In this document: one piece after another, positions 641-52,683 of the stretch
Numbering within the stretch: position 1 is the stretch's first letter
How the letters are laid out: each line of letters begins with the position of its first letter
Source of the DNA: Candidatus Heimdallarchaeota archaeon
GTDB taxonomy: Archaea > Asgardarchaeota > Heimdallarchaeia > JABLTI01
Assembly (NCBI GenBank): GCA_018238155.1
Contig: JABCTZ010000001.1
Location: forward strand, 51,691 to 115,690
DNA length: 64,000 nt
Reading direction: 5' to 3'
Made by a program: the position numbers and the translations under genes
Notes under the pieces: model-generated
What the model was told of the DNA's origin: nothing
The model's database searches: none
The model's input: only the letters and a program-made list of their open reading frames with translations

Positions 641-3436
641 ATGGTATCTGGTTTTGATAAGACTGTAGAAGAAATCTATGATTTGTTAGATTCACAATTT
701 GAAGGATTATCTACAGAGGAAGCAAAAAAAAGAATTGAAAAACATGGTCAGAATATTGTTTCTTCCGAAAAAAAGACAAGTTCAATCAAACTTTTTCTAA
801 GTCAATTCAAGGATCTCCTTGTAATTATTCTTTTAATTGCTGGTCTCATTACTGGAGTAATTGGTATTATTGAGTCGAATTTGGAAGCAATAATTGATGT
901 CAGTGCAATAGCAATAGTTGTTCTATTAAATGCCTGTTTAGGTTTTTATCAAGAATATTCTGCCGAAAAAGCTATTAGCGCTTTGAGAAAGCTCTCTGAA
1001 AGTCAAGTTATTGTTGTTAGAGACCACAAAAAAATATACATCGATTCTGAATATGTCGTTCCTGGAGATATTATTTTTCTGGAAGCAGGTAATTCAGTTG
1101 TTGCCGATATTCGATTAATTCAATCCTATGAAATCAGAGTGAGCGAAGGCATTCTAACTGGCGAATCGACCACAATTGCCAAGCATACGGATTCTCTTCC
1201 AACAGATACACAATTAGCTGATAGAAAAAATACTCTTTTCAAAGGAACTACGATTGTTAATGGTTCTGGTTTGGGTATTGTTGTAAGCACAGGGTTCCTT
1301 ACAGAATTGGGCAAGATTGCTTCTTCATTGCTTTCAATTGAGCAAGAAGATACTCCTATCCAAAAGAAACTCGATCAACTTGCAAAACAAATAACAATTG
1401 GTATAGGCATTCTTTCGGTAATTATCTTTCTTATTGGTATCCTTTCAATTGGTGTGAGTAGTTGGGCTGTTTTATTGATCTTTTCTATTGGATTAGCTGT
1501 TGCAGCAGTCCCAGAAGGGTTACCAGCTGTTCTAACGCTTTCACTGGCTTTAGGGATTAATCGTTTAGCAAAGAAAAATGCTCTTGTGAGAAAATTGCCT
1601 GCGGTTGAAGTTCTAGGCTCATCTACTATTATTTGTACAGATAAAACAGGTACACTTACTCGAAATGAACAAACGGTTAGATTAATTTGGACTTTGGATA
1701 CAAAGTATAGTGTTACAGGTGATGGATATTTCAGCTCTGGAAATATCGTTGCTAAAGAAACTGGGAAAAAAGAAGAATCATTAACAAATTCTACTCTTCT
1801 TAAAAATATTGAAATCGGTGCTTTAGCTAATGAAGCTGCAATTGAAAAACAAGGTGAAAATGATCCCTACAAAATATTTGGTGATCCTACAGAAGTTGCA
1901 CTACTAATTCTTGCTGAGAAAGGACAAACGATGGAAACAATTCAATCTGAATGGTCTTTAGAATATCTCTTTCCTTTTGATAGCGATAGAAAACGTATGA
2001 GTGTTATTGTTAAAAATCGCAAAACTGAAAAATATGCTATTATGGTTAAAGGTGCGCTTGATATTTTACTTGATTTCTGCACAAATCAATTTTCGAATAA
2101 CGTTGTAAGTCCACTTGAGAAAGCAAGTAAGCAAATCATTATTCAAAATAGTGAAAATTATTCTGCGAGTTACGCTTACAGGATTCTTGGAATGGCTTTT
2201 AGAGAAATAACTGATGAAGAAGCAGAAAAATTACTGCTTTCTAAAAAGTCAGAATTAGTTGAACGGAATCTCACATTTGCTGGGTTTGTAGGGATGATAG
2301 ACCCACCACGAACTCAATCCCGTCCTGCTATTCTCAAAGCAAAAGCTGCTGGTATTAGAGTCATCATGATTACTGGCGATCACGTTGAAACTGCAAAAGC
2401 AATTGGACGTTCAATAAGTCTTACAACAAGCACAACCCCAATTACCGGAAAAGTGCTGGATAAAATGACCGATGATGAACTTGAGTTAATCGTTCAAACA
2501 ACAGATATTTTCGCTCGAGTTAATCCTCATCATAAACTGCGTATTATCAATGCCCTAAAAAAACTGGGTGAAATTGTTACCATGACTGGTGATGGTGTTA
2601 ATGATTCGCCTGCCCTAAAAAGAGCAGATATTGGTGTAGCAATGGGTATAACTGGAACAGATGTATCCAAAGAAGCAAGTGATATGATTTTAGTAGATGA
2701 TAACTTCGCAAATATAATTGAAGCTGTTTCAGAAGGACGAACAATCTATTCGAATATTAAAAAATTCATTGGTTACCTTCTCTCAGCAAATGCAGGAGAA
2801 CTAATCACTGTTCTTTTTGGAATTATTTTTGGTCTAATTTTCTTCAAAACAACAATTATCCCTATTTTGACCATCCAATTACTCTACATTAATTTGCTAA
2901 CAGATACTTTTCCAGCACTTGCTTTAGGTGTGAGCCCCGCAGAGGAAGATATTATGCTTCGCAAACCTCGAAATCCAAAAGAACCTCTAATTGATAAGGA
3001 GATGCTAGTTTCAATAATCACATCGGGACTGATGTATGGCATCGGCACACTCTTTGGTTATTTCTGGGCGATGGGTTTTACATTATCAACTGATGTTGAG
3101 ACGGTGAAAGCTGCTCAAACAATGGTTTTTGTTTCACTTGTTGTTTACCAACTTCTTCATTCATTGTCCTTGTGTCAAGATGATTTGATTTTTACTAAAA
3201 AATTTTTCAAAAATCATAAACTCTTTCTAGCAGTACTATTTAGCATTATTATGCTTGTTATCGCATTGTATGTACCATTTATGTCAAGATTTGCTCATAC
3301 AACTCCTTTGAATGGGATGCAGTGGTTGATTGTATTACTAACTGCGCTTCCAATCATGATTGCTGATGAAGTAAGAAAATTCATTTTTAATAGGATAAGG
3401 AAGAACAAGATAGCAGAATTAAATGATACTTACTGA
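641..3436 (+). CDS. P-type cation-transporting ATPase, P2A (Ca2+-type)
   Basis: TGES, PEGLP, DKTGTLT, MITGD and TGDGVND motifs; ATG at 641 preferred over TTG at 626. Confidence 0.95.
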   Translation: MVSGFDKTVEEIYDLLDSQFEGLSTEEAKKRIEKHGQNIVSSEKKTSSIKLFLSQFKDLLVIILLIAGLITGVIGIIESNLEAIIDVSAIAIVVLLNACLGFYQEYSAEKAISALRKLSESQVIVVRDHKKIYIDSEYVVPGDIIFLEAGNSVVADIRLIQSYEIRVSEGILTGESTTIAKHTDSLPTDTQLADRKNTLFKGTTIVNGSGLGIVVSTGFLTELGKIASSLLSIEQEDTPIQKKLDQLAKQITIGIGILSVIIFLIGILSIGVSSWAVLLIFSIGLAVAAVPEGLPAVLTLSLALGINRLAKKNALVRKLPAVEVLGSSTIICTDKTGTLTRNEQTVRLIWTLDTKYSVTGDGYFSSGNIVAKETGKKEESLTNSTLLKNIEIGALANEAAIEKQGENDPYKIFGDPTEVALLILAEKGQTMETIQSEWSLEYLFPFDSDRKRMSVIVKNRKTEKYAIMVKGALDILLDFCTNQFSNNVVSPLEKASKQIIIQNSENYSASYAYRILGMAFREITDEEAEKLLLSKKSELVERNLTFAGFVGMIDPPRTQSRPAILKAKAAGIRVIMITGDHVETAKAIGRSISLTTSTTPITGKVLDKMTDDELELIVQTTDIFARVNPHHKLRIINALKKLGEIVTMTGDGVNDSPALKRADIGVAMGITGTDVSKEASDMILVDDNFANIIEAVSEGRTIYSNIKKFIGYLLSANAGELITVLFGIIFGLIFFKTTIIPILTIQLLYINLLTDTFPALALGVSPAEEDIMLRKPRNPKEPLIDKEMLVSIITSGLMYGIGTLFGYFWAMGFTLSTDVETVKAAQTMVFVSLVVYQLLHSLSLCQDDLIFTKKFFKNHKLFLAVLFSIIMLVIALYVPFMSRFAHTTPLNGMQWLIVLLTALPIMIADEVRKFIFNRIRKNKIAELNDTY

Positions 3437-13840: not shown

Positions 13841-14893
13841 TTATTTAAATAAAACTTTACTAAGTAGTTTTAGTTGTTCAATACCACGGATTTCTTGTGG
13901 AACCATGGGAATTTCAGTTTGAATAAATTCACCGAAATATTGTTTCATTGTTAACATTGTTTTTTCTTGAATTTCGAATCTCTTTGCACAGAATTGGCAA
14001 TCTTTACTTGGTGGTATTAATTGATTTACAATGATGTGTTCTACAGGTATACCATATTCCTTTAATGAAGTGATTAATCTTTCAGTCTCATATAATGCCA
14101 TCATAGTAGGTATTGTTACAGGAATGAATTCTGTTTTCGTTTCATCTGCAAGCTGTATTCTTGCTTTTGTAATTGTTTTCTTGAGCGTTTCCATTACTTC
14201 AAGAGAATTATCCTCAACGTCTTCTCCACCTCCTCCACCTGAAAAGAGGTTTCGCATTCCTTTGAAAAGATTACCAAAACGCATTCTCATTTTGAGCATT
14301 CTGCCAATAAAGCTATCAAGATAATCTGGAAGAGAGAGGAATCTAAGAGTATGACCCGTTGGTGCGGTGTCAAAAACAACTAAATCATATTCATTTGATT
14401 CTATTAATTCAAGTAATTTGCTAAAAGCAAATGCTTCATCTGAACCGGGAGGGATAGAATCTTCACCTAACAAATCAGCACCTAGTCCCTCTAAACCTGG
14501 TGGCATTTGTGGTGCTCCTGTTGTTCCTTCTGTAGTATTTGATGTTGTCCCAAAACCCGGCATACCCATTCCTTGGGCACCTGGCATTCCCATTGAGCTC
14601 AACTGTTTAAAACTCTCCATGCCCTTCTCTGCATCTAGTTCCAATCCAAAGAGATTTCCATCAACATTTTCAATTTTGACAGATTCGCCCCCTGATAAAT
14701 CCTGATCAAAACAGTCAGAGAGTGAATGTGCTGGATCTGTACTTACAACAAGTACTTTATCAAAATGTTTTGCTAATTCTATACTAATAGCTGAAGCAGC
14801 TATTGTTTTACCCACACCACCCTTTCCTCCAAGGAAGAGATACGTTAAATCCTTTTTTTCTAGCAATGATTGTAAAGTCATTTGAACCAACAC
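13841..14893 (-). CDS. Get3/TRC40-like (ArsA family) ATPase
   Basis: GGKGGVGKT, STDPAHSL, DTAPTGHTLR and NQ motifs; C-terminal CQFC; Met-rich insert; single domain. Confidence 0.9.
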   Translation of the reverse strand: MLVQMTLQSLLEKKDLTYLFLGGKGGVGKTIAASAISIELAKHFDKVLVVSTDPAHSLSDCFDQDLSGGESVKIENVDGNLFGLELDAEKGMESFKQLSSMGMPGAQGMGMPGFGTTSNTTEGTTGAPQMPPGLEGLGADLLGEDSIPPGSDEAFAFSKLLELIESNEYDLVVFDTAPTGHTLRFLSLPDYLDSFIGRMLKMRMRFGNLFKGMRNLFSGGGGGEDVEDNSLEVMETLKKTITKARIQLADETKTEFIPVTIPTMMALYETERLITSLKEYGIPVEHIIVNQLIPPSKDCQFCAKRFEIQEKTMLTMKQYFGEFIQTEIPMVPQEIRGIEQLKLLSKVLFK

Positions 14894-15180: not shown

Positions 15181-15300
15181 AATTCGACAAAAATTCAATT
15201 TCGAATAACTTTTATAAGTATAATAAATACTAGAAAGTTAGTAATCAGTTTTTCTGATTATTAGAAATTTATAGGAAAAATGAGGGAAAATGAGGAAAAA
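15181..15300 (+). repeat. Conserved promoter/leader of cassette copy 1 (colinear with 38441-38560)
   Basis: Ungapped match at offset 23260; 15239-15300 is nearly identical to 38499-38560; TATA-like TTTATAAG at 15211; inverted repeat TAATCAG-TTTTT-CTGATTA at 15242-15260. Confidence 0.9.
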
Positions 15301-15832
15301 TAAGAAAATATTATTGTTAAGTACTTTAATTTTGACTATGTTAGCAGTAACATTAGTTGCTCAAACAAATAGTGCATATTCACCTGTTCGCCCATTACGC
15401 AAAGTGCGAGTTTTCATAACACAAGTAAATTGTATAGGTCTACCTCAAGGGGGATGGTTCTCTCTTACTTTGTATCCTACATATCTTCGGCCATTTGGAG
15501 GTTATGGTGATGAATTTACATCAAATTCCAACTGTGGGGATATGTCAGGAGGTAGTTTTCTCTACCCTCCCGGAATTAGTTCTGGAACCCATGTCTATTA
15601 CAATAACTTGTATTGTGATTGGTCTCTTTGTATGGACTTTACTCAAAATGCAATATATTGCAGTGGTGAAATTAAAATAAAATATAAATTAAGACAGCAC
15701 AAATTATGGGGTCGTACTGAATATATTACAATATTATACAATACTTATTCTTATGATACAGAATATATAACCACTCTGCACTACGGAATGGGTGTTGTAA
15801 AAGTATATATCACATTTCAGCTTCTAAGCTGA
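15290..15832 (+). CDS. Secreted hypothetical protein, cassette copy 1
   Basis: Basic plus hydrophobic signal peptide; paralogous to 38550-39098. Confidence 0.8.
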   Translation: MRKNKKILLLSTLILTMLAVTLVAQTNSAYSPVRPLRKVRVFITQVNCIGLPQGGWFSLTLYPTYLRPFGGYGDEFTSNSNCGDMSGGSFLYPPGISSGTHVYYNNLYCDWSLCMDFTQNAIYCSGEIKIKYKLRQHKLWGRTEYITILYNTYSYDTEYITTLHYGMGVVKVYITFQLLS

Positions 15833-15846
15833 AAAGCTTTTTTTTT
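15815..15846 (+). terminator. Hairpin plus T-tract after the secreted-protein gene (copy 1)
   Basis: TTTCAGCT-TCTA-AGCTGAAA followed by AGC and T9. Confidence 0.65.
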
Positions 15847-15879
15847 AAAAAATGTTGAGTGCAAATGAAAGTGAGAGAT

Positions 15880-18621
15880 ATGAAAACCATGTTATACCAT
15901 CTATTTGCAAAACGAAAAGTACTATTGAAGACTATTATAATCATTGGATTACTATCTCTGATTATTCTGACTTTTCTGTTTCCTGCACAGATTGCCACAC
16001 CACACATTATCAGAAAGCATTTCAATTGGGGGGGTAATCCAATTATAATTGGTGAGGATCTACAAAATAGTGGTCTTAATAATCCGGATTTTATGTATCA
16101 TTTTAAAGTCAACAATATCGCTTTTATAACTGAAATTAATCAAATTTGCAAAGAAGCATCGCTTAAGATATATGACTTATATCAACCTTCTTCCATTGGT
16201 TGTTTTAGTATTGAGCATGTAATTATTACAAATCAAACACTTGAAGATTGGACTGTTTTTGGGATTAATACAGAATTATATACCGAGTTGGTGAGCACAT
16301 TAAATTCAAGTTTTGATAATGTACCTATTTTAGTAACTAATCATAGTATAACAACTGGTTTGTATGAGTTCAATTCTAGTAAAATTGGTAATTTTAGTAT
16401 AACAATTAATCATAATATTCAAACTTTGGATCTACAAGAAAAATTACCATCATTTAATAGTTACATCAATGAATTGAATAAATATAGTGATAATCCAATA
16501 AACAAATCACGAATGATTTTTATTCCACATGAAAGTTTTCAAACAATATTTAAAATTGATATTTTTCTCATCAAGGGTTACATTGAATTCACAACTTATC
16601 AAGAGGATATTCTATATTGGTCTTTAGATGCACCCAGAAAGCTAAGGTTATTCAAAGAAAGCTTATGTCAAGAGTTTCACGCAAAAGAACAATCAATAAA
16701 TTATTTATTACTTTATCAATCTATAATCTATAAAGAGGGATTAGTAGAGAGTAATGTTCTCATTGTAAATATTATTTATTCATTTATTCATGCAATTCAA
16801 TTAATTATCTGGGGATTATCTGGAGCATTGATTTTCTTGATTTTAATAAAAATGCAACAAAATAATAAAGACAAAGAATTTCAGATGCTATTAGCAGGAA
16901 AGAATTTTCTTACGAGAATATCTACAATTGTTTTAGAAAACATTCTTATTGTCACTGGTGTTTCGGTTATTGCTTATGGTTTACTATTGCCTTTTATTAA
17001 ACTGCAAGCACTTATCTTTAATTTTCCATTTGATTTCTATAATGAAAATATTAAATTTGCTCTCATTTTCTTTCCAATAGCATTATTCTTTAGTTTGTTG
17101 ATTATTTATCTTGACTTTGAATTGCATTTACGAAAGTCACTTAAAAATGGACAAATCGATAGTGAAACCTATCAACCTTTTGCTAAGATTCCAAAGTATA
17201 TTCGTTACCAGATTTTTTTGGTCTTTGTTTTCTTATTATGGTTATTAAATCGCTCATTGCAACCATTTCTATACCAAATAGGATTTTTATTCCTTTTAGG
17301 AATAATTAGTGTTCTTTTATTTTTAGTAATTAAGGGTTGCATGTGGGTTATCATAAGAGTAGTAAAGAAAATTAAACGCAAATATGACAAACCATTATCT
17401 AACTTTGTACTTCTTCTTGAGATGTGGAAAAAACCAATTAATACAAGATTTGTTCTTAGTAGCTTTATTGGAACAATGATCATTGGTCTCTGCATATTTA
17501 GCATTGCTAATGCTGAGGTACAGAAAACAACAATGTTTTTCAATAATGATTTTTGTGCTATAAAAACAACAGTTAGTCTTCCAAATAATGATACAACATC
17601 TATCGAAGTTTTTCTACAGAATAATTCATTATTAAATGAACACTATACAAAATTAGTTTTTGCTCAGCACAATCCATGGGATAATATTTCATTTGTACAC
17701 AACAATCAATCAATTGTTGAGTTACCCAAGAACTTTTGCTTATTATATGGTATTAATATTACTGATTATCAGGCATTCTATTCCTCTTGGCGAACAGATA
17801 ATTGGTTGCAAAATAGCATACAACCAGAAAAATTGAACTGTTCAAATGCCTTTGTTAGTAAGAGTTTCGCACAGCTAGGTTATGAACTAGGTGATTCAAT
17901 AACTTTAGTCAATAATCAAAATGTATCCATTGCTGGTTTCCTTGATCAGTGGATAGGTATTGTTAGTACTGGTAATTATGTTTTAGTTCTTGAAAGTCAA
18001 ATAATGGAAAAATTACTATTAGATTCTAATACTTCATCTATAGAATATCAGTTTAGATTCAATAGTGAAGAAAAAAATATTGAACATTCGGTTGAATATC
18101 TTCTTAATCATTTAAGTGACATTGATGTGCCTTTTGCTATTTCATATGTACCTCCTGATATGATAGAGGGAATAGAATTAGTATTTATCATGCCCATAAT
18201 GATGACTCTTGAGTCTTTAGTTATCTTTTTTATAGCAGTTAGTATTTTTAACAATTTGACTGATATTCACTCCAGTGATGAAGCACGAACACTTGGTATT
18301 CTTTTTATGAACACAGATTTTAAAAAAACCTTGTTTCGCGTGAAACTTTTCGAAATGTTACTTTCGATAACACTTATTGCAGTTATTGTGAGTAGTATAC
18401 TTGTTGTTTTTTCAATAATACTTGATAGTAATTTTACTTCTAACAATGTACCGAATTTTATTGAGATAATAAAAGCAGGATTAGGATTTTCAAAAAATAT
18501 TGTTTTTTACTCGATAATTATTTTGCTATTTTATCTTTTAATAGTTGTCGTACAAAATGTTTTTGATTATTTGAAGTTTAATAAATTGAAAATCCATTTA
18601 TTATTCCGTCATATTGAATGA
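15880..18621 (+). CDS. Large FtsX/MacB-like ABC permease (two halves), cassette copy 1
   Basis: TM, large extracellular domain, TM block, repeated twice; LGYELGDSITL...IAGF motif; adjacent to ABC ATPases; start uncertain (15859-15889). Confidence 0.7.
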   Translation: MKTMLYHLFAKRKVLLKTIIIIGLLSLIILTFLFPAQIATPHIIRKHFNWGGNPIIIGEDLQNSGLNNPDFMYHFKVNNIAFITEINQICKEASLKIYDLYQPSSIGCFSIEHVIITNQTLEDWTVFGINTELYTELVSTLNSSFDNVPILVTNHSITTGLYEFNSSKIGNFSITINHNIQTLDLQEKLPSFNSYINELNKYSDNPINKSRMIFIPHESFQTIFKIDIFLIKGYIEFTTYQEDILYWSLDAPRKLRLFKESLCQEFHAKEQSINYLLLYQSIIYKEGLVESNVLIVNIIYSFIHAIQLIIWGLSGALIFLILIKMQQNNKDKEFQMLLAGKNFLTRISTIVLENILIVTGVSVIAYGLLLPFIKLQALIFNFPFDFYNENIKFALIFFPIALFFSLLIIYLDFELHLRKSLKNGQIDSETYQPFAKIPKYIRYQIFLVFVFLLWLLNRSLQPFLYQIGFLFLLGIISVLLFLVIKGCMWVIIRVVKKIKRKYDKPLSNFVLLLEMWKKPINTRFVLSSFIGTMIIGLCIFSIANAEVQKTTMFFNNDFCAIKTTVSLPNNDTTSIEVFLQNNSLLNEHYTKLVFAQHNPWDNISFVHNNQSIVELPKNFCLLYGINITDYQAFYSSWRTDNWLQNSIQPEKLNCSNAFVSKSFAQLGYELGDSITLVNNQNVSIAGFLDQWIGIVSTGNYVLVLESQIMEKLLLDSNTSSIEYQFRFNSEEKNIEHSVEYLLNHLSDIDVPFAISYVPPDMIEGIELVFIMPIMMTLESLVIFFIAVSIFNNLTDIHSSDEARTLGILFMNTDFKKTLFRVKLFEMLLSITLIAVIVSSILVVFSIILDSNFTSNNVPNFIEIIKAGLGFSKNIVFYSIIILLFYLLIVVVQNVFDYLKFNKLKIHLLFRHIE

Positions 18622-18642
18622 ATTATGGAGAGAAAGTGAAAA

Positions 18643-19338
18643 ATGGTTTCAGAAACAAAATTACAAGCAAATGAACTTACAAAAATATTTGCTCATCCAT
18701 CCAAGAAAAAAACAAATATACCTCTCTTTGCCGGAACGTCATTTGTGATGACAGCTGACAAAATTAATTTTGTTATCGGTCCATCTGGTTCAGGAAAAAC
18801 CACTCTCATCAAAATTCTAATGAGTATTGAACCTATAAATGCTGGAGAGATTTTCTTGAATGAACAGACCATTCATTCTCTAACAATGAAAGAACGAAAT
18901 AGCTATTTACAAAAGATAGGATATATGAATCAATTTCCTGCTAAATATCTCTCTTTAGATTCTACCGTTTGGTTTAATCTCGCTCAAGCTTTTTTCCTTC
19001 ATTCCAAATTATCCAGAGAGGAATTAAAAAAACTCATTCAATCAACTGCTTCATTGTTCAGTATTGAACACTTGCTTGAACAAAGAACCAATTTCCTTTC
19101 AGGTGGAGAGCTTCGTCGACTCAGCATTGCTTGCAGTACTATTTTTCAACCTAAGATACTTTTTTGTGATGAACCAACAGCACAATTGGATGAAGAGAAT
19201 AAGAAAGCTGTTATGCAAACAATCCTAGATTTGCAGAAAAAGACTAACTGTTTGATTCTTATCTCAACACATGATCAATCCATTATAGATGTTGGCAATG
19301 TTTTCGAAATAAAAGATAGGAGGATAATAAAATGGTAA
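18643..19338 (+). CDS. ABC transporter ATP-binding protein (LolD/FtsE-like), copy 1a
   Basis: GPSGSGKT, LSGGE, CDEPT, STHD. Confidence 0.93.
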   Translation: MVSETKLQANELTKIFAHPSKKKTNIPLFAGTSFVMTADKINFVIGPSGSGKTTLIKILMSIEPINAGEIFLNEQTIHSLTMKERNSYLQKIGYMNQFPAKYLSLDSTVWFNLAQAFFLHSKLSREELKKLIQSTASLFSIEHLLEQRTNFLSGGELRRLSIACSTIFQPKILFCDEPTAQLDEENKKAVMQTILDLQKKTNCLILISTHDQSIIDVGNVFEIKDRRIIKW

Positions 19339-20018
19339 TTGAACTAAAAGAAATTCACTATAGCTTTACAAGAAAAATGAAGAATCAAGTAATTATCAAA
19401 GAAATTCTCCAAGGATTGAATCTTTCTGTCACTAAGGCTGAGTTCATTTTAATCACAGGTCCATCGGGTTCAGGGAAAACAACATTGTTACAAATCATTG
19501 CTACAATGCTACATCAAAAAACTGGCGAACGAATACTTTTTGGAAAAAATCACTCTGATGAACAATCCACACAAGATTTGATTCCAACAAGAAGAAAAAT
19601 TGGTTATCTTTTTCAACAACCCTACCTTCCTCCTAAAATGAAAATCAAGGATTTCATTGCTTTACAAGCTATGCTCTCTGGAATTGGCATTAAATCTGCT
19701 GAAGAAAGAGCAAAATCACTTTTAACAGAATTCGATATGATGAATTTTGCTAACAATTATCCTCAGAAATTAAGTGGAGGAGAAAAACAACGCATTGCTC
19801 TTGCAGGTGTTTTAGCTAAAGATATTCAACTTCTCTTATTAGATGAACCTACTGGTTCTCTTGATTCTACAAACAAATCAATTATCTGGGAAGCAATAAC
19901 TGATTTAAAAGAAAAAGGTCTTACTATTATTGCTGTCACTCATGACGTCTCAATAACTTCTCTTTCAGATAAAACTTATGAATTGAATTATGGTATTTTA
20001 ACTAGAAAAGGAAAATAA
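19332..20018 (+). CDS. ABC transporter ATP-binding protein (LolD-like), copy 1b
   Basis: GPSGSGKT, LSGGEKQR, LLLDEPTGSLD, VTHD; overlaps the previous gene. Confidence 0.93.
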   Translation: MVIELKEIHYSFTRKMKNQVIIKEILQGLNLSVTKAEFILITGPSGSGKTTLLQIIATMLHQKTGERILFGKNHSDEQSTQDLIPTRRKIGYLFQQPYLPPKMKIKDFIALQAMLSGIGIKSAEERAKSLLTEFDMMNFANNYPQKLSGGEKQRIALAGVLAKDIQLLLLDEPTGSLDSTNKSIIWEAITDLKEKGLTIIAVTHDVSITSLSDKTYELNYGILTRKGK

Positions 20019-20126: not shown

Positions 20127-21083
20127 ATGACTGAAATTGACTCAATATCTGAGCCAAATAGGGTTCTTGTTAACGGCGACGATAAAGGTACTAAGAACGC
20201 CAAAGTATTTACTTGGACAAAAGATCGCATTGTGCTTGCAATAATCTTTGTTATTATCATGCTTATCTCTGTAGGTTTGTTAGTTGTTATCATAGTTCAA
20301 GAAACATTCCTATTCACAGTTGTTCGTGATTGGTTTATTGCGCCCATTTTAAAAATACATATTGTATGGCGTATTGTTATGTTCTTAGCTGTTATGGTTC
20401 TCCAAAGTCTTTTTGCACCAATTCCATCTGAATTAATTCTTTTATCAGGTGGTATGCTGTTTGGGTACTATTGGGGTTCATTGATTGGTGTTGTTGGTTC
20501 CATGTTTAGTGCAGCAATCACTTTTTATCTTTCAAAACGTGGTGGGAGATCATTAGTTGATGCTGCTGGAAAGAAATCCGGTATAATCGATCGTACAATA
20601 TATATTTTTGATATTTGGATCAAAAGATGGGGAATTTGGGCCATTATCATTGGTAGAGCTGTGCCTGTAATTATGTTTGATCCTATAAGTTATGCAGCTG
20701 GTATAGCGAATGTAGAAGATAAACAATATTTCTTAGCAACATTTATTGGATCAATTCCTCGCGCAATTTTCTATTCTATTCTTGGAGTTCAACTTCTGGG
20801 TGATAGAGATATTAACGAAATTTTAACATTAACTCAAACTGAAATAGAAACTGCTGCAAGTCAATTCAATGCTATATTCTTCATTATTTTCAGCGTTCTT
20901 GTTTTGATGTTTGTTTTGTCAAATGTTATTTACTATGTAAATCAACAAAAGAAGAAGAAAGAGAATCTAGAAGATGATGATCTCGTAGTTGGTTCCGACG
21001 AAAATGTTTCTTCAAAAGCAATTGAAATTGTTGAAGAAGAGCTTTCTGCACCAGATAGTTTATCTGAGGTTGGAGAGGAATAG
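20127..21083 (+). CDS. DedA/VTT (TVP38/TMEM64) membrane protein
   Basis: APIPSE...GG.LFG, GRAVPVIMFDPISYAAG and ATFIGSIP motifs. Confidence 0.88.
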   Translation: MTEIDSISEPNRVLVNGDDKGTKNAKVFTWTKDRIVLAIIFVIIMLISVGLLVVIIVQETFLFTVVRDWFIAPILKIHIVWRIVMFLAVMVLQSLFAPIPSELILLSGGMLFGYYWGSLIGVVGSMFSAAITFYLSKRGGRSLVDAAGKKSGIIDRTIYIFDIWIKRWGIWAIIIGRAVPVIMFDPISYAAGIANVEDKQYFLATFIGSIPRAIFYSILGVQLLGDRDINEILTLTQTEIETAASQFNAIFFIIFSVLVLMFVLSNVIYYVNQQKKKKENLEDDDLVVGSDENVSSKAIEIVEEELSAPDSLSEVGEE

Positions 21084-33208: not shown

Positions 33209-33781
33209 TTATGTTGCAATAGCTCTTTGTGCACTTGGTGTTGCGCCCATGAATCGGCGAACAAAATTTCCTAAACCAATAGATGTTAGGAAATACCAAC
33301 CCGTGAATCCCATCCAAGTTAAATTACCAAGATATCGAACATTTGGTATTATTAAAGGAATAGATGGGAAATTAAAAGGCATCCAAGCGATTGGAATATT
33401 AACAAATGCTGATCTCATCAAGAAGAAAATGATTGTTACAGGAACAAACCAAACCAACATTGGTTTCATATTTTGAATCATCATTTCACTTTGGATTTTC
33501 TTAATATATTCTTCTCTTCTTTGAACTTTTTGCCATAATTTCTTATCAGCAGAATCCATTGCTTTCTTTTTATTTTCATTATGAATTTTGATTTCTTTTT
33601 GGTTTCGACTGATTTTCTCTACATTCACAAGTGCTTTTGTGAGTAAACTCATTAACACTGCCATCAATATATTGAACAAGATTATAAAATATGTTGATCC
33701 TGGTGCATATAATATTCCTATAGCTTCAAAGATGAAGCTAAACCATGCTCCTACGGGATCAAGGAAACTTAACCAACCCAA
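33209..33781 (-). CDS. DUF106 / EMC3-TMCO1 (Oxa1 superfamily) membrane insertase
   Basis: TM, coiled coil, MKPM...TM, then GF.GWYFL.S; adjacent to rpl34e. Confidence 0.85.
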   Translation of the reverse strand: MGWLSFLDPVGAWFSFIFEAIGILYAPGSTYFIILFNILMAVLMSLLTKALVNVEKISRNQKEIKIHNENKKKAMDSADKKLWQKVQRREEYIKKIQSEMMIQNMKPMLVWFVPVTIIFFLMRSAFVNIPIAWMPFNFPSIPLIIPNVRYLGNLTWMGFTGWYFLTSIGLGNFVRRFMGATPSAQRAIAT

Positions 33782-38214: not shown

Positions 38215-38421
38215 TTATTTTCGTCTTCTTTTTACTGCTGTTACTCCAACAACAGCTGCTAAAGCAGGGATAGCAATTAACCATTCAAAACCAGTTGCTT
38301 CATTGTAGAATTCGCCAATGTTATAACCTTCAATTTCAACACATTGTTCCATAACAAATGATTGTGTAATGCCTAAAATAGTACCAGAGCAATCTATGGC
38401 TACTTTCCATCCTTGGCTCAC
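38215..38421 (-). pseudogene. 3' remnant of a surface-protein gene with a C-terminal sorting signal
   Basis: TGFEWLIAIPALAAVVGVTAVKRRRK tail; no signal peptide or convincing RBS; own hairpin/T-tract at ~38174-38205; starts next to the cassette copy 2 promoter. Confidence 0.6.
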
Positions 38422-38440: not shown

Positions 38441-38560
38441 AAACCGACAAAAAACCAATACTGAATAACATTTATTAATATAATTTGCGTTGGAGAACTA
38501 GTAATCAGTTTTTCTGATTATTAGAAATTTATTGGAAAAATGAGGAAAAATGAGGAAAAA
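38441..38560 (+). repeat. Conserved promoter/leader of cassette copy 2
   Basis: Colinear with 15181-15300; hairpin CTAGTAATCAG-TTTTT-CTGATTATTAG at 38498-38524. Confidence 0.9.
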
Positions 38561-39098
38561 ACAATTACTTGTAATATTGTTAATATCAATCTTTTGTTGT
38601 TCCATTTTTTTAAGGATGAATTCAACAAATTCCACAACAATAGAGCTTGATAAAATACAAATTGTAATCAATAAGATAGCTGTAACAGATGAATTGGCGA
38701 AAGTATGGTTTTTTAGTACTTGGTACTTTATGGAAATTGAACCAATGTACAAAAGACACTTTGGAACTTGGGGCGATCGACTTCAAAATAGTGATTTTCA
38801 ATATGAGGATTGGATTGGTAGTTCAAATAGATATCCTGCTGGAATTGAAGCTAATAAAATCAAGGTTTATTCTAATATTCTAAATATTGAGTATTCTTAT
38901 TGTTTACCTTTTGAAGACGATGACAAATCTGAACTATCTCTCAGCTTCACACTCCACAGAAGAAATCCACATGGCAAGCATGTCTTTACTAAAGAATTTA
39001 ATAATTTGGACTACGGAGTTATGTATTCGAGTGGAGATTTGAATTATAGAAATTATGGCGGGCATGTGACTGTATATTTCACAGTCAATTTATTGTAA
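38550..39098 (+). CDS. Secreted hypothetical protein, cassette copy 2
   Basis: Signal peptide; shares P.Y.R.FG..GD, G.S..YP.GI, S.C..F and G.V.VY.T..LL with 15290-15832. Confidence 0.8.
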   Translation: MRKKQLLVILLISIFCCSIFLRMNSTNSTTIELDKIQIVINKIAVTDELAKVWFFSTWYFMEIEPMYKRHFGTWGDRLQNSDFQYEDWIGSSNRYPAGIEANKIKVYSNILNIEYSYCLPFEDDDKSELSLSFTLHRRNPHGKHVFTKEFNNLDYGVMYSSGDLNYRNYGGHVTVYFTVNLL

Positions 39099-39122
39099 TG
39101 GGAACACCATTACATTTTTTTT
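39094..39122 (+). terminator. Hairpin plus T8 after the secreted-protein gene (copy 2)
   Basis: TGTAATGG-GAACA-CCATTACA-TTTTTTTT. Confidence 0.75.
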
Positions 39123-39161
39123 AAGAATTAAATAGAATGAATAAGAGGAGATGGTTGTACT

Positions 39162-41846
39162 ATGATGAAAATATTTTATAACTTACTTTCGAAGAAAAAT
39201 TCTCTAATTAAGCAGATTATGATATATAGTTTGATAATAATTGTTTCTGTAAGTGTTTTATATCTACCTCAAGTAGCTAACCCTCATAATCTTAGAAATT
39301 ATTTCAGGAATTTTAGCAATGGTGGATTATATTTCAAAGAAGGCACCATTGATTGGGATCGATATGGATATGACTTTGAAACAACAGCTGGGCAGTCTAG
39401 CTCTTTAGGCTTCTTTGATAATTTTTCTGATATTTTAGAAACAACATCCAAAGAAGTTTATGGTTTATTTGAACCTTCAGAGTATTATTGTATTTCAAAA
39501 CTAAATATTTACATCAATAATTTGACTATCGATAATCAATTTTCTTTGATTCCAATAAGCTCTAGATTCTATAATGAAATAGGAAAATTATTGAATACTA
39601 CTTTCATCGGTGGGTCATTAATTATTACGAATACCTCAAGTTTCTCATCAGGTTCATACAATATAACTTATAATAATCAAAATACCTCTATTTCAATAAA
39701 TTATCTTATTGAAAGCAATCTAATAGAAACATATTATCCTTCTCTGAAACATCAAATCTTTGGAAATCAACAAAATGATAATTTAACAAATATTATTTTA
39801 ATGCCTGTGGTTGAATTCTCTCCAATATTTGATAATCTAGAAAAGTCTTTTAGTAATAAATATCATTTTGAAGTTTATATCAAGTTTTCTGATTTTCAAA
39901 AGGATGTTATATTTTGGTCTATTAATTCTCAATCATTATTACTAGATTTTGAAGAGACTTTAATTGCTAACCTCCAATCAGTTGAATCAACTTTAACAAT
40001 TCAATTTTTTAGGAATCAAGATTTTTCGATAGCGAATAATTCCATCTTAATCAAGACTATTTTTTCATTTATTCGTGGTATCCAAATTACCATTTGGATA
40101 ATATCAATAGCTATTGTAGGATTAACAATTTCACAAGTTAAAAAGAGTGGGCTAAAAAAAGAAATGCGTATTTTAATGGCTGGAGAAAAATGGTCTACTC
40201 GATTAATCAGCCATTTTTCTGAAATATCTATTATTGAATTCTGTAGTTGCTTGATAGCATTACCAATTTCATTTCTATTTATGAAAGCTCAGATTTTAAT
40301 TGGATTAGATTTTAGTTTTACAAAAGCAATGGCTTTGGGGTATGGACTGATTCCTATCTGTTTTCTATGCCTGTTATTTGGTTTTTATTTTGATTTTGAA
40401 TTTTATCTTCGACGTATTTTAGAAACTGGTTTTTCATCTGAAAAATATCGTCCATTCACAAAAATACCAAATATCGTCAAAGTAATGCTTATTCCAGTTG
40501 CATTCCTTTTAGTTTGGTTATTGAACAAATCACTTACTTCACTTTTGTTTCAATTAGGTTATATTATTGTTGTAATTATAATTGCATCTTTGGTTGGTTT
40601 TTTGATAAAATCTTTGCTTAAAGTAATATATCGGTTTAGTATTAAAAGAAAAAGGAAAGTGGATCAACCTCGTTCAGTTTTCAATATTATTTGTCAATTA
40701 TTTAACAAATCACTTGTAAATAGGGTTCGAGTCTTTTCTTTTCTATTAACAATTGTTTCTTTAATGTTCTTTTATACAGCTATTACTGCTGATGGTTTTA
40801 AAAATGGTTATTTATTAATGCACGGCAGTGAGATAAGTGTTACTGTAAATGCCGATTCAAATTCAACGTTGATTAAAGATACACTCATTAATAATTCCAA
40901 TATTCTTGATTATACAATTATATCTATGATTAATCACAACCAAGTGTATAATATTACGGTATTGAAAGAATCTTTTGATAATGATTCATGTTCAATTTAT
41001 GGTTTGAATATAGATGATTATTTCAACTTTTATAAGACTTGGAATAAGCGAAATTGGCTTCAAAGTGGAACACTTGATGCTTTAGATAACCAATCAATAT
41101 TTGTAAGCTTAAAATTCAAAGAGTATAATTATGACATCGGTGATAATTTAGTATTAAAAGATAATTTATCTTTAACCATAGCTGGTTTTTTGAATGAGTG
41201 GTCTGGTATTTCTGATATATATTGCACAAAAAGTCAATTAATAGTAGCTCTGACTCAACCTGATATGTTACATATTCAAGGTTTTGCTGGTAATGGTTCT
41301 GTTTCTTATACCTATAAGATTCATGTCAAACCAAAGAATATTATTCCAACAGTTAATTACTTAAATGAGAAACTGTCTGCATTAGATTCATTTGAGGAAA
41401 TAACTGCTATCGATTTCATGATTTTTATAGGAGTCCGAATCGTTTTCTTATATCCTATTTGTTTACTTTTTGAGCTTTTCATATTAATCATGATTGCTCT
41501 AACTATATATTCAAATATCGTACCAATGCAATCAAATGAAAATTTCAAGTTATTTGGTTTAATTTCAATGAATGCTGATTACAGGAAACCCTTTAGGAAT
41601 TATAAGATCTTTGAAAATATTCTATTTAGCTTTTTGTTCGTTTTGATTCTTTCATTATTTTTATTACTGGGTAGTATTTCTTGGGTTCTATTATCCCCGG
41701 GTGATTTTTCTTTCTCCTCTCAAACAATACTATATACGGGAATATTTTTCGCTCTTTATATTGCTCTCTTATTCATACAGAGTTCAATAGAATACATTAG
41801 TTTCAAGAAACTAAAATTAAATTTACTATATCGTCATTCAGAATGA
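39162..41846 (+). CDS. Large FtsX/MacB-like ABC permease, cassette copy 2
   Basis: Paralogue of 15880-18621 (Q.A.PH..R..F, DFE..LR, Y.PF.KIP, LWLLN.SL, IAGFL..W.GI, LL.RH.E). Confidence 0.7.
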   Translation: MMKIFYNLLSKKNSLIKQIMIYSLIIIVSVSVLYLPQVANPHNLRNYFRNFSNGGLYFKEGTIDWDRYGYDFETTAGQSSSLGFFDNFSDILETTSKEVYGLFEPSEYYCISKLNIYINNLTIDNQFSLIPISSRFYNEIGKLLNTTFIGGSLIITNTSSFSSGSYNITYNNQNTSISINYLIESNLIETYYPSLKHQIFGNQQNDNLTNIILMPVVEFSPIFDNLEKSFSNKYHFEVYIKFSDFQKDVIFWSINSQSLLLDFEETLIANLQSVESTLTIQFFRNQDFSIANNSILIKTIFSFIRGIQITIWIISIAIVGLTISQVKKSGLKKEMRILMAGEKWSTRLISHFSEISIIEFCSCLIALPISFLFMKAQILIGLDFSFTKAMALGYGLIPICFLCLLFGFYFDFEFYLRRILETGFSSEKYRPFTKIPNIVKVMLIPVAFLLVWLLNKSLTSLLFQLGYIIVVIIIASLVGFLIKSLLKVIYRFSIKRKRKVDQPRSVFNIICQLFNKSLVNRVRVFSFLLTIVSLMFFYTAITADGFKNGYLLMHGSEISVTVNADSNSTLIKDTLINNSNILDYTIISMINHNQVYNITVLKESFDNDSCSIYGLNIDDYFNFYKTWNKRNWLQSGTLDALDNQSIFVSLKFKEYNYDIGDNLVLKDNLSLTIAGFLNEWSGISDIYCTKSQLIVALTQPDMLHIQGFAGNGSVSYTYKIHVKPKNIIPTVNYLNEKLSALDSFEEITAIDFMIFIGVRIVFLYPICLLFELFILIMIALTIYSNIVPMQSNENFKLFGLISMNADYRKPFRNYKIFENILFSFLFVLILSLFLLLGSISWVLLSPGDFSFSSQTILYTGIFFALYIALLFIQSSIEYISFKKLKLNLLYRHSE

Positions 41847-41863
41847 ATATCGGAGGTAATAAT

Positions 41864-42565
41864 ATGGCTAATACTATAAATAAAATATCTGCGCACGAGA
41901 TTACAAAAATCTATCCTCATCCTAATAAAAAAGATGTTAATTTCCCTGTTTTTGCTGGTGCATCTTTCATTATTACTAGTGAGTCTATTAATTACCTATT
42001 GGGTTCTTCGGGATCGGGCAAAACAACATTGCTAAGAATGCTTCATGGGATTGAAAAAATTAACGCTGGAGAATTAATATTCAATGATGTTGTGATTAAT
42101 AGTTTAAGTGGAAAAGAAAGAATTACTTATTTAAAAGATGTTGGTTATATGGATCAATTTCCCTCTGATTACTTGTCAACAAACCTTACTGTTGCACAAA
42201 ATTTGGATTATTCTTTGTTGCTTCATCAAAGCTTACCGAGAGAGATACGAAAAAAGAAAATCGATGATATCGCAACTAAATTTCATTTATCAAACCTTCT
42301 TCAACAGAAAACTCTTTCAATTTCAGGAGGGGAAATGAGGCGTTTAGGTTTAGCTTGCAGTATTATTTTTCAACCAAAAATTCTTCTCTGTGATGAACCA
42401 ACAGCTCAATTAGATAATGAAAATAAGAAAGATATTATGAAGATTTTTCATGAAATTGTATCAGAATTTAATCCAATTATCCTTATTGTGACCCATGATA
42501 ATTCAATTACAGATCCAAAATTTACACTTAAGATAGTTGACAGGAGGATCCAACAATGGAGTTAA
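41864..42565 (+). CDS. ABC transporter ATP-binding protein, copy 2a
   Basis: GSSGSGKT, ISGGE, CDEPTAQLD, VTHD; GGAGG precedes ATG 41864. Confidence 0.93.
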   Translation: MANTINKISAHEITKIYPHPNKKDVNFPVFAGASFIITSESINYLLGSSGSGKTTLLRMLHGIEKINAGELIFNDVVINSLSGKERITYLKDVGYMDQFPSDYLSTNLTVAQNLDYSLLLHQSLPREIRKKKIDDIATKFHLSNLLQQKTLSISGGEMRRLGLACSIIFQPKILLCDEPTAQLDNENKKDIMKIFHEIVSEFNPIILIVTHDNSITDPKFTLKIVDRRIQQWS

Positions 42566-43230
42566 TAAGATTAGAACATATTCAATTTTCATTTGGTAAT
42601 AATTCAAAAGAACAAAAAAAAATTTTGGCTGATATCAATTTAACTATCACTAAAGGGGACTTTCATCTCATAACAGGTCCTTCTGGATCGGGTAAAACAA
42701 CCTTATTACAGATACTTGCTACTTTGTTATTTCCAACAAGTGGTAAATACTATTACGTAAACCAAGAGATCAATCGAAATTCTTCCATAGAGGAATTATC
42801 ATCTCTCAGATTAAAAATTGGTTATTTATTTCAAACTCCTTTTTTACCAAATAACCTTAAAGTCAAAGATTATATTGAAATTCAAGCCGAATTATCAGGA
42901 ATGGGTATAGCTTCTGCAGAAAAGAAGTCATTGAGTTTATTAGAAGATTTTGGCATCGTAAATTTAGCTTCATTAAAACCTGGAACTCTAAGTGGTGGAG
43001 AAAAACAAAGAGTTGCATTAGCTGGTCTTTTTATTAAAAACAGCAAACTTTTGTTATTTGATGAACCTACAGGATCACTTGATTATGAAAATAAAAAAAT
43101 ATTTTGGGAATTACTAGTACAAGCAAAAAAACAAGATACGACTGTAATAACAGTCTCACATGATGAATCATTATCAGCTTTTTGTGACCATTGTTTCAAT
43201 TTGGATTATGGAGTTTTAACCCCTCTATAA
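42556..43230 (+). CDS. ABC transporter ATP-binding protein, copy 2b
   Basis: GPSGSGKT, LSGGEKQR, DEPTGSLD, VSHD. Confidence 0.93.
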   Translation: MELIRLEHIQFSFGNNSKEQKKILADINLTITKGDFHLITGPSGSGKTTLLQILATLLFPTSGKYYYVNQEINRNSSIEELSSLRLKIGYLFQTPFLPNNLKVKDYIEIQAELSGMGIASAEKKSLSLLEDFGIVNLASLKPGTLSGGEKQRVALAGLFIKNSKLLLFDEPTGSLDYENKKIFWELLVQAKKQDTTVITVSHDESLSAFCDHCFNLDYGVLTPL

Positions 43231-52345: not shown

Positions 52346-52683
52346 TGGAGTAAATAATAGTCCTCTTTCTGTTTTGAGGATCACCTTGCGATGAGCTCCT
52401 CTCACGGTATCAATCTACGCGCTCAACCCGCTTCTCCTGGCAAGTCATTGAAGCCAATTTGAGCTTGCTTCCGCGATGATGGGTCGTTTCAACGTTTAAT
52501 ATACGACAGACTCAACAAAGCTTCCGAAGACGCCGTGTATCATTGCTAAAATCGGTATCACGTATCGTTTCTATTCCCAGAGCCAAGATTTCGCTTGACA
52601 GCTTTCACTGTATCGCTTGCCTGGAAGAAAGGACCTTCCTCAGATGCTAACGAGAGCACCCGGAAACCGTTTAATCTACTCCA
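52346..52683 (-). ncRNA. rnpB: RNase P RNA, archaeal type A
   Basis: Minus strand: P1 UGGAGUAGAU/AUUUACUCCA; CR-I GAGGAAGGUCC; AGAAAC; UGAAAC; GCAAG; CR-V AACAGAAAGAGGACUA. Confidence 0.93.

Follow-up and report, generated by a model that had tools for sequence, protein, structure and literature searches.

The 'TGM' operator of TrmBL1 is an inverted repeat with a 5-nt spacer, and TrmB acts at a trehalose/maltose ABC transporter operon. At the RNA level, protective stem-loops at the 5' terminus of a message are established in bacteria but, to our knowledge, not in archaea, and we know of almost nothing that has been described about promoters, leaders or mRNA control in Asgard archaea. The bacterial examples include the ompA, aprE and ermC leaders (reviewed in PMC3997798).

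The locus described here, a promoter and leader that are nearly identical in front of two old paralogous operons of a Candidatus Heimdallarchaeota archaeon, resembles these systems in part. As in the ompA, aprE and ermC leaders, a stable stem-loop occupies the predicted 5' end or sits within a few nucleotides of it, the ribosome-binding region behind it is unpaired, and the sequence of the stem varies freely between relatives. The host, unlike theirs, is archaeal, and the 5' end is one predicted from sequence. The locus shares with the operators of TrmBL1, TrmB and MDR1 an inverted repeat that has a 5-bp spacer and immediately follows the TATA box of a transporter operon. It differs from them in that no factor gene was recognized nearby, there are no further genomic sites, the ortholog carries another palindrome, and the identity reaches far beyond the half-sites. 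Finally, a sharp-edged island of near-identity between saturated paralogs, absent from an ortholog, is the picture familiar from gene conversion and concerted evolution, although the tract here consists of a promoter, a 5'UTR and 11 nt of coding sequence rather than of coding sequence.

Two diverged cassettes and their shared upstream block

The window, by which we mean the whole 64,000-nt stretch of DNA that was analysed, contains an archaeal RNase P RNA at 52346-52683, which indicates that the DNA is of archaeal origin. The assembly comprises 4.08 Mb in 46 contigs, with 32.8% G+C. ARAGORN reported only 20 tRNA genes in this 4.08-Mb genome, which is 90.7% complete; many of its tRNAs were probably missed by the program, perhaps because of introns or split genes. 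Two paralogous cassettes, A and B, of four genes each lie on the same strand with a spacing of 23,260 bp. Each encodes a signal-peptide protein of ~180 aa, a membrane protein of ~900 aa and two ABC ATPases. Their parts are as follows.

15290..15832, forward strand: cassette A, gene for the small secreted protein (180 aa, with signal peptide); its first 11 nt lie inside the identical block
15818..15846, forward strand: copy A, terminator-like signal at the end of the small gene, a hairpin that overlaps its stop codon, followed by T9
15859..20018, forward strand: remainder of cassette A, the membrane protein and two ABC ATPases
15859-18621, forward strand: cassette A, gene for the ~900-aa membrane protein
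38550..43230, forward strand: cassette B as a whole, with the small secreted protein, the ~900-aa membrane protein and two ABC ATPases
38550-39098, forward strand: cassette B, gene for the small secreted protein
39094-39122, forward strand: copy B, terminator-like signal at the end of the small gene, a hairpin that overlaps its stop codon, followed by T8
39162-41846, forward strand: cassette B, gene for the membrane protein

Over the four genes, the A and B proteins are 28%, 28%, 53% and 50% identical, a range of 28-53% that bears out the original prediction, in which the proteins downstream of the leader had been called very divergent. Four-fold synonymous sites in codons for identical residues are 40% identical between A and B, against 39% expected at saturation. 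Neutral DNA of such an age therefore has no signal left, and the leader is a true outlier. In both cassettes the terminator-like hairpin with its T-run separates the small gene from the transporter genes, and the two hairpins have stems of unrelated sequence. The 23-kb interval between the copies contains pyrBI, dehydrogenases, an aminotransferase, a glycosyltransferase, a response regulator and pilus-like genes. Divergent from cassette B is an ORF of 68 aa (38215-38421, reverse strand) that ends in a hydrophobic stretch plus KRRRK; its start codon and that of cassette B are 128 nt apart, and the conserved block nearly fills the gap. The same window holds eukaryote-like membrane-biogenesis genes, which encode a Get3/ArsA-like ATPase (13841-14893, reverse strand), a VTT/DedA-domain protein (20127-21083, forward strand) and an EMC3/TMCO1-like protein (33209-33781, reverse strand).

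Upstream of the small genes, 15238-15300 and 38498-38560 are equal at 60 of 63 bases, the differences being at 15238 (T/C), 15273 (A/T) and 15286 (G/A). The last two are the only ones within 15239-15300 and 38499-38560, the 62-mer in which about two differences had been reported; the third falls just outside it. The near-identity of this 62-mer is real, and the similarity extends further than had been noted, over an ungapped block of 116 nt (15185-15300 and 38445-38560) that is 83% identical. The identity within it has two tiers, 95% in the leader and 68% in the promoter part, which reaches back to 15185 and 38445 and has 36 of 53 bases equal. In a global alignment of the cassettes over 5.2 kb, the best 60-nt window is the leader, at 92% (mean 49%, sd 14%). 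The longest exact run shared by A and B, 34 nt, is also in the leader; no run in the coding parts exceeds 17 nt, a length reached at the Walker-B region of an ATPase. A 26-nt palindrome, TAGTAATCAG-TTTTT-CTGATTATTAG, is identical at 15239-15264 and 38499-38524, for which the expectation from shuffled sequence is 0.

This palindrome has two copies only in the 4.08-Mb genome when up to 3 mismatches are allowed. The two in the genome are joined by none among 60 relatives, in which blastn with the 120-mer gave chance-level matches only. An exact scan of genome, metagenome and viral contig collections with the 22-nt core gave no match, blastn against phages gave none to the leader, and no sequence similar or complementary to the leader was found elsewhere in the genome. 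These searches bear on one of three readings offered by the original prediction, a recombination site for cassette exchange. Taken broadly, the copies would be sites of site-specific or homologous recombination at which the DNA between them is exchanged or excised. The two are direct repeats 23,260 bp apart, and 11-bp arms around a short spacer faintly recall the core sites of tyrosine recombinases. We nevertheless regard this as highly improbable: no recombinase accompanies the housekeeping genes of the interval, the spacer measures 5 bp, the repeat runs on through promoter, Shine-Dalgarno sequence (SD) and start codon, and viral, phage, genome and metagenome collections hold no copies. The other two readings, an RNA hairpin and an operator, both fit the geometry of the block, in which the stem begins 27 nt after the TATA box. 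Its features are these.

15185..15193, forward strand: copy A, CGACAAAAA motif upstream of the promoter, also present in copy B, L057, L034 and L041
15203..15218, forward strand: copy A, BRE-like GAATAAC (15203-15209) and TATA box TTTATAAG (15211-15218), which fits the boxes of the tRNA promoters
15238..15264, forward strand: copy A, hairpin with an 11-bp stem including 2 G-U pairs and a TTTTT loop; the predicted start is at its 5' edge
15265..15289, forward strand: copy A, unpaired A-rich linker with an out-of-frame ATG (15280-15282) and the SD GAGG (15282-15285)
15277..15296, forward strand: copy A, tandem 10-mer AAAATGAGGG AAAATGAGGA
38445..38453, forward strand: copy B, CGACAAAAA motif
38463..38478, forward strand: copy B, BRE-like GAATAAC and TATA box TTTATTAA (38471-38478)
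38498..38524, forward strand: copy B, hairpin with an 11-bp stem including 1 G-U pair; the basal pair is C-G, as against U-G in A
38525..38560, forward strand: copy B, linker, tandem 10-mer (38537-38556), SD GAGG (38542-38545), start codon (38550) and the first 11 coding nt

In the tRNA promoters of this genome a GAAA-like stretch precedes a recurring box, YTTATAAA or TTTAAAA, which lies 36-47 nt upstream of the mature 5' end. The sole good match to such a box in the leader is (GAATAAC)T-TTTATAAG, to which (GAATAAC)A-TTTATTAA corresponds in copy B. Measured from the start of the TATA box the stem begins at 27 nt, and measured from the end of the box at 20 nt; the former distance is the same in both copies, as was implied by the earlier observation of a TATA-like box some 25-30 nt before the element at equal spacing. 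In the AT-rich archaeon M. jannaschii, an A+T-rich box is centred ~30 nt before mapped starts, and nearly all mRNAs have leaders of at least 10 nt (PMC2699501). From the position of the TATA box and the M. jannaschii spacing, we predict transcription to start at about A15240 in copy A and A38500 in copy B, 29-30 nt downstream of where the TATA box begins, give or take 3 nt. In both copies this base is a purine that follows a pyrimidine, and it lies 2 nt inside the 5' arm of the stem. Upstream of the RNase P RNA gene, the A-rich box at the expected distance of 30 nt is weak and departs from the consensus, and it gives no calibration of the distance from TATA box to start. The 116-nt block as a whole is a predicted archaeal core promoter with its 5'UTR.

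Beyond the stem, GAGG stands 4 nt before the ATG at 15290 in copy A and is complementary to the 3' end of the 16S rRNA, GGATCACCTCCT. The tandem 10-mer had been described as having an out-of-frame first start, and this is what we find at 15277-15296, where the ATG at 15280 is out of frame, GAGG occupies 15282-15285, and the second ATG (15290) is the start of the signal-peptide protein. An upstream reading frame from the first ATG was considered as a conserved peptide and rejected, since it has 7 codons in A and 36 in B; the upstream ATG of the third paralog, which is in a different frame and at a different distance, also disfavours it.

Leader hairpins within the cassette family

The T/C difference at 15238, the only one in the stem, preserves pairing at the terminal base pair, as U-G in A and C-G in B; the other G-U pair of the stem is internal. 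On the sense strand the predicted fold has ~-10 kcal/mol and a z-score of -2.7 relative to shuffles. Set against each other, the sense strand has -9.6 kcal/mol and the antisense strand -5.4, because the mismatches between the arms are G-T and so form G-U pairs in the sense RNA. An RNA that began at 15240 would still fold, with a predicted -7.4 kcal/mol at 37 C (-12.1 at 15 C); were the start 4-5 nt further in, only 5-6 bp and -4 kcal/mol would remain of the stem. Viewed as DNA, the inverted repeat is imperfect over 10-11 bp, with inner arms that are perfect over 7 bp and a 5-bp spacer. Rfam covariance models gave a best E-value of 1.8 for the leader, far below gathering scores. The genome contains 709 stems of at least 11 bp with at most 2 G-U pairs, compared with 445 in shuffles (1.6-fold), and no enrichment of hairpins after TATA-like motifs was found genome-wide. 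A strong hairpin at this place must therefore be viewed as a trait of the operon family, not of the genome.

The family of the membrane protein has 41 representatives among 1.84 billion proteins. Across 83 genomes of the class it is confined to eight of the ten genomes of the same genus and one genome of another family. Pfam gives one weak MacB_PCD match, in one of 13 members; a permease profile found no match among PDB sequences, and a search for homologous proteins with the B permease returned the B permease itself only. At five loci (G008:C152, G007:C74, G009:C84, G008:C20 and G010:C5; L033, L035, L037, L040 and L041) the small secreted-protein gene is absent within ~1.4 kb upstream of the membrane protein gene, so that the gene is no constant component of the system; at G010:C53 two small genes stand in tandem.

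One member, L057 (metagenome contig RCNB010001494.1), is the true ortholog of cassette A, with a permease 65-66% identical and a small protein 55% identical. Its leader forms the stem CTTTGATTAA-TAT-TTAATCAAAG, perfect over 10 bp and extending to 12 bp (z -3.9), which is unrelated in sequence to the A/B stem; its linker and SD differ from those of cassette A as well. A second TATA-like box in L057 would place the start inside its hairpin. Sought in the 83 genomes of the class, the L057 hairpin gave matches at control level only. L034 (G004:C310), from the other main clade, has the hairpin TTAGCATCCT-ACGA-AGGATTGCTAA at 25-26 nt after a consensus CTTTATAAAA box (z -3.2). The hairpins of L042 and L061 are weaker (z -2.1 and -1.6), and the short stems in the leaders of L036, L038 and L058 are no better than shuffles. 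L043/L052, the third paralogous cassette of the same genome (G000:C16:22177-24903), has no hairpin (z -0.1); its leader contains a consensus TTTTATATA box and a similar SD/start region (GGATGGGGAAATAATGAG).

In only three to four of eight independent family leaders is the fold significant relative to shuffles. In six of the eight, 25-30 nt separate the best TATA box from the beginning of the stem, which in most leaders ends 21-25 nt before the start codon (15 nt in L057). Since the weak stems were picked by eye, only the three strong ones (the A/B leader, L057 and L034) are taken as evidence; with z-scores from -2.7 to -3.9, each would be expected in ~1-2% of shuffles. RNAalifold found no consensus structure for nine leaders, because MAFFT cannot align hairpins of unrelated sequence, and the stems of the family were compared one by one rather than by a covariation statistic. 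As predicted from these leaders, the hairpin is stable on the sense strand and appears to be kept in relatives despite change of sequence, while four other leaders have no significant predicted fold.

The same figures can be read to mean that the hairpin has no function of its own, the leader being a neutral gene-conversion tract whose stem is a chance inverted repeat in AT-rich DNA. Stems comparable to this one are not rare in the genome, given the 709 counted above, hairpins are not enriched after its TATA-like motifs, and half of the family leaders are without a significant fold. Against this stand three independent strong hairpins, in A/B, L057 and L034, whose position with respect to the TATA box and the start codon is the same, and we consider chance a rather unlikely explanation.

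The CGACAAAAA motif lies 53 nt upstream of the hairpin in copy A, copy B and L057. It occurs upstream of the promoters of five family cassettes (A, B, L057 at 3315-3325, L034 and L041), at a variable distance from the TATA box, and the same 9-mer precedes, by ~25-50 nt, the apparent starts of several genes of similar appearance on contigs C20 and C29. It was rejected as a regulon motif for lack of genome-wide enrichment, with 59 copies compared with ~94 for permuted motifs.

Origin of the shared leader

In the protein tree, A groups not with B but with L057 and P0017 (support 96-100), and B is placed in a sister group with G007:C91 and others. It follows from this topology that the common ancestor of A and B was also the ancestor of L057, G008:C152 and G007:C91. 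The upstream regions of these three share nothing with the 62-mer, the upstream DNA compared on the B side being that of G007:C91. Since even the closest ortholog is without the sequence, the description of the leader as nearly invariant does not hold in the sense of deep conservation. The promoter part of copy A is likewise closer to that of B, at 36 of 53 equal bases, than to that of its ortholog L057, at 27 of 53. At the right edge of the tract, 15296-15300, the relationship reverts: after ATGAGG, copy A again resembles L057 (AAAAAT...). No shared leaders were found between the paralogs of any other multi-cassette genome. The locus therefore displays features of the gene-conversion type, namely an island of identity bounded by saturated divergence and, as checked on the A side, a closer relative (L057) that lacks the tract.

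Copying is preferred over long-term conservation, because it requires a single event where conservation requires at least three replacements. Most likely, to judge from the tree and the upstream regions, the leader was copied from one paralog to the other in a gene-conversion-like manner after the split from the L057 lineage. The copied tract would be at least 63 nt long and would perhaps comprise all 116 nt. The two tiers of identity weigh against this account combined with an RNA hairpin, as they require either two copy events or one older event and thereafter strong constraint on every position of the leader, which a simple stabilizer hairpin does not predict.

The alternative is that the 62-mer is ancestral and was kept in both paralogs by selection on every position, while the other lineages replaced it. 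Such selection might come, for example, from a small RNA or an RNA-binding protein that recognizes the whole leader. It would account for the identity of loop and linker and not of the stem alone, and the 17 differences in 44 positions of the adjacent promoter spacer, compared with 3 in 63 in the leader, could be the mark of constraint after one old copy or duplication. Retention would require independent replacements in L057, G007:C91 and G008:C152, at least three in place of the one copy event; no similar or complementary sequence exists elsewhere in the genome, and the paralogs of no other genome share leaders. We therefore judge ancestral retention to be quite improbable.

A terminal RNA stem-loop or an operator as possible readings

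The palindrome could also act as DNA. A dimeric factor that bound TAATCAG-N5-CTGATTA over the start would block recruitment of RNA polymerase and so repress both operons together. The inverted repeat, with its perfect 7-bp inner arms and 5-bp spacer, spans about -3 to +24 of the predicted start and, at 15238-15264, lies between the TATA box and ~+20, a classic position for a repressor operator. Upstream of ABC transporter operons, archaeal repressors, TrmB/TrmBL1 and MDR1 among them, bind inverted repeats at the corresponding place. The palindrome is exactly common to the two paralogs, which would make them co-regulated, and a transcription start a few bases further in, by cutting the RNA stem to 5-6 pairs, would weigh on the same side. 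The comparison with relatives and with the rest of the genome points the other way. The palindromes of L057 and L034 at the equivalent place are unrelated in sequence, and although a TGATTA hexamer is common to L057, its orientation is flipped there; nor is the motif conserved at orthologous promoters more widely, given the different sequence in L057 and the lack of a DNA match in 60 relatives. Sites matching TAATCAG-N5-CTGATTA with at most 2 mismatches number 31 in the genome compared with 38 in shuffles, a result that leaves no regulon and no autoregulated gene. Pfam recognizes no transcription factor gene beside A, B or L057, though a cognate factor might be encoded at a distance. Loop, linker and SD, dispensable for an operator, are included in the identity, and the arm mismatches are the G-T pairs that still pair in sense RNA. 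We hold an operator to be possible, but on the unlikely side.

The evidence favours an RNA hairpin over an operator, because the place and structure of the hairpin are kept but its sequence is not, in the ortholog L057 and in the distant paralog L034, and because the sense strand folds better and the only difference within the stem still pairs. A 5'-terminal RNA stem-loop, together with the copy event, is in our view the best explanation of the locus, and we give it roughly even credence. The mRNA would begin with a stem-loop of 9-11 bp, followed by ~25 unpaired, A-rich bases that carry GAGG and the start codon. A stem-loop so placed would shield the 5' end from 5'-to-3' exonucleases. Combined with the terminator-like hairpin and T-run that follow the small gene, it would yield a short, stable mRNA for the secreted protein, bounded on either side by a hairpin, and read-through past the terminator-like signal would carry transcription into the transporter genes. 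The shared leader would set the same expression for both operons.

Archaeal 5'-3' exonucleases belong to the beta-CASP class (PMC3792030). Three beta-CASP genes were found in this genome, at G000:C1:47046-47423, C39:59144-59515 and C41:288575-288928, in open frames of 473, 641 and 466 aa, respectively. The two proteins of ~470 aa are candidate 5'-3' exoribonucleases.

A stem-loop with this role, a stabilizer of the bacterial type, and an operator of the TrmB type are both elements of known kinds, and the locus is in that respect a fairly ordinary regulatory element, in a lineage for which we know of none described. It offers a concrete Asgard promoter and 5'UTR, in which the tRNA promoters of the same genome lend support to the TATA box and a hairpin coincides with the predicted start. 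The locus also provides a clean example of homogenization between old paralogs in a regulatory region, and it carries a caution for comparative work, as near-identity of non-coding DNA within one genome can reflect recent copying and not deep constraint. A more far-reaching proposal, which we would call a long shot, is that the whole 62-nt leader serves as a specific address for a trans-acting RNA or protein that couples both export cassettes post-transcriptionally, and that this coupling first drove the swap and then froze it. If that were true, the leader would be the first example, in a Heimdall-type Asgard archaeon, of a portable promoter-leader module by which a regulon is shaped.
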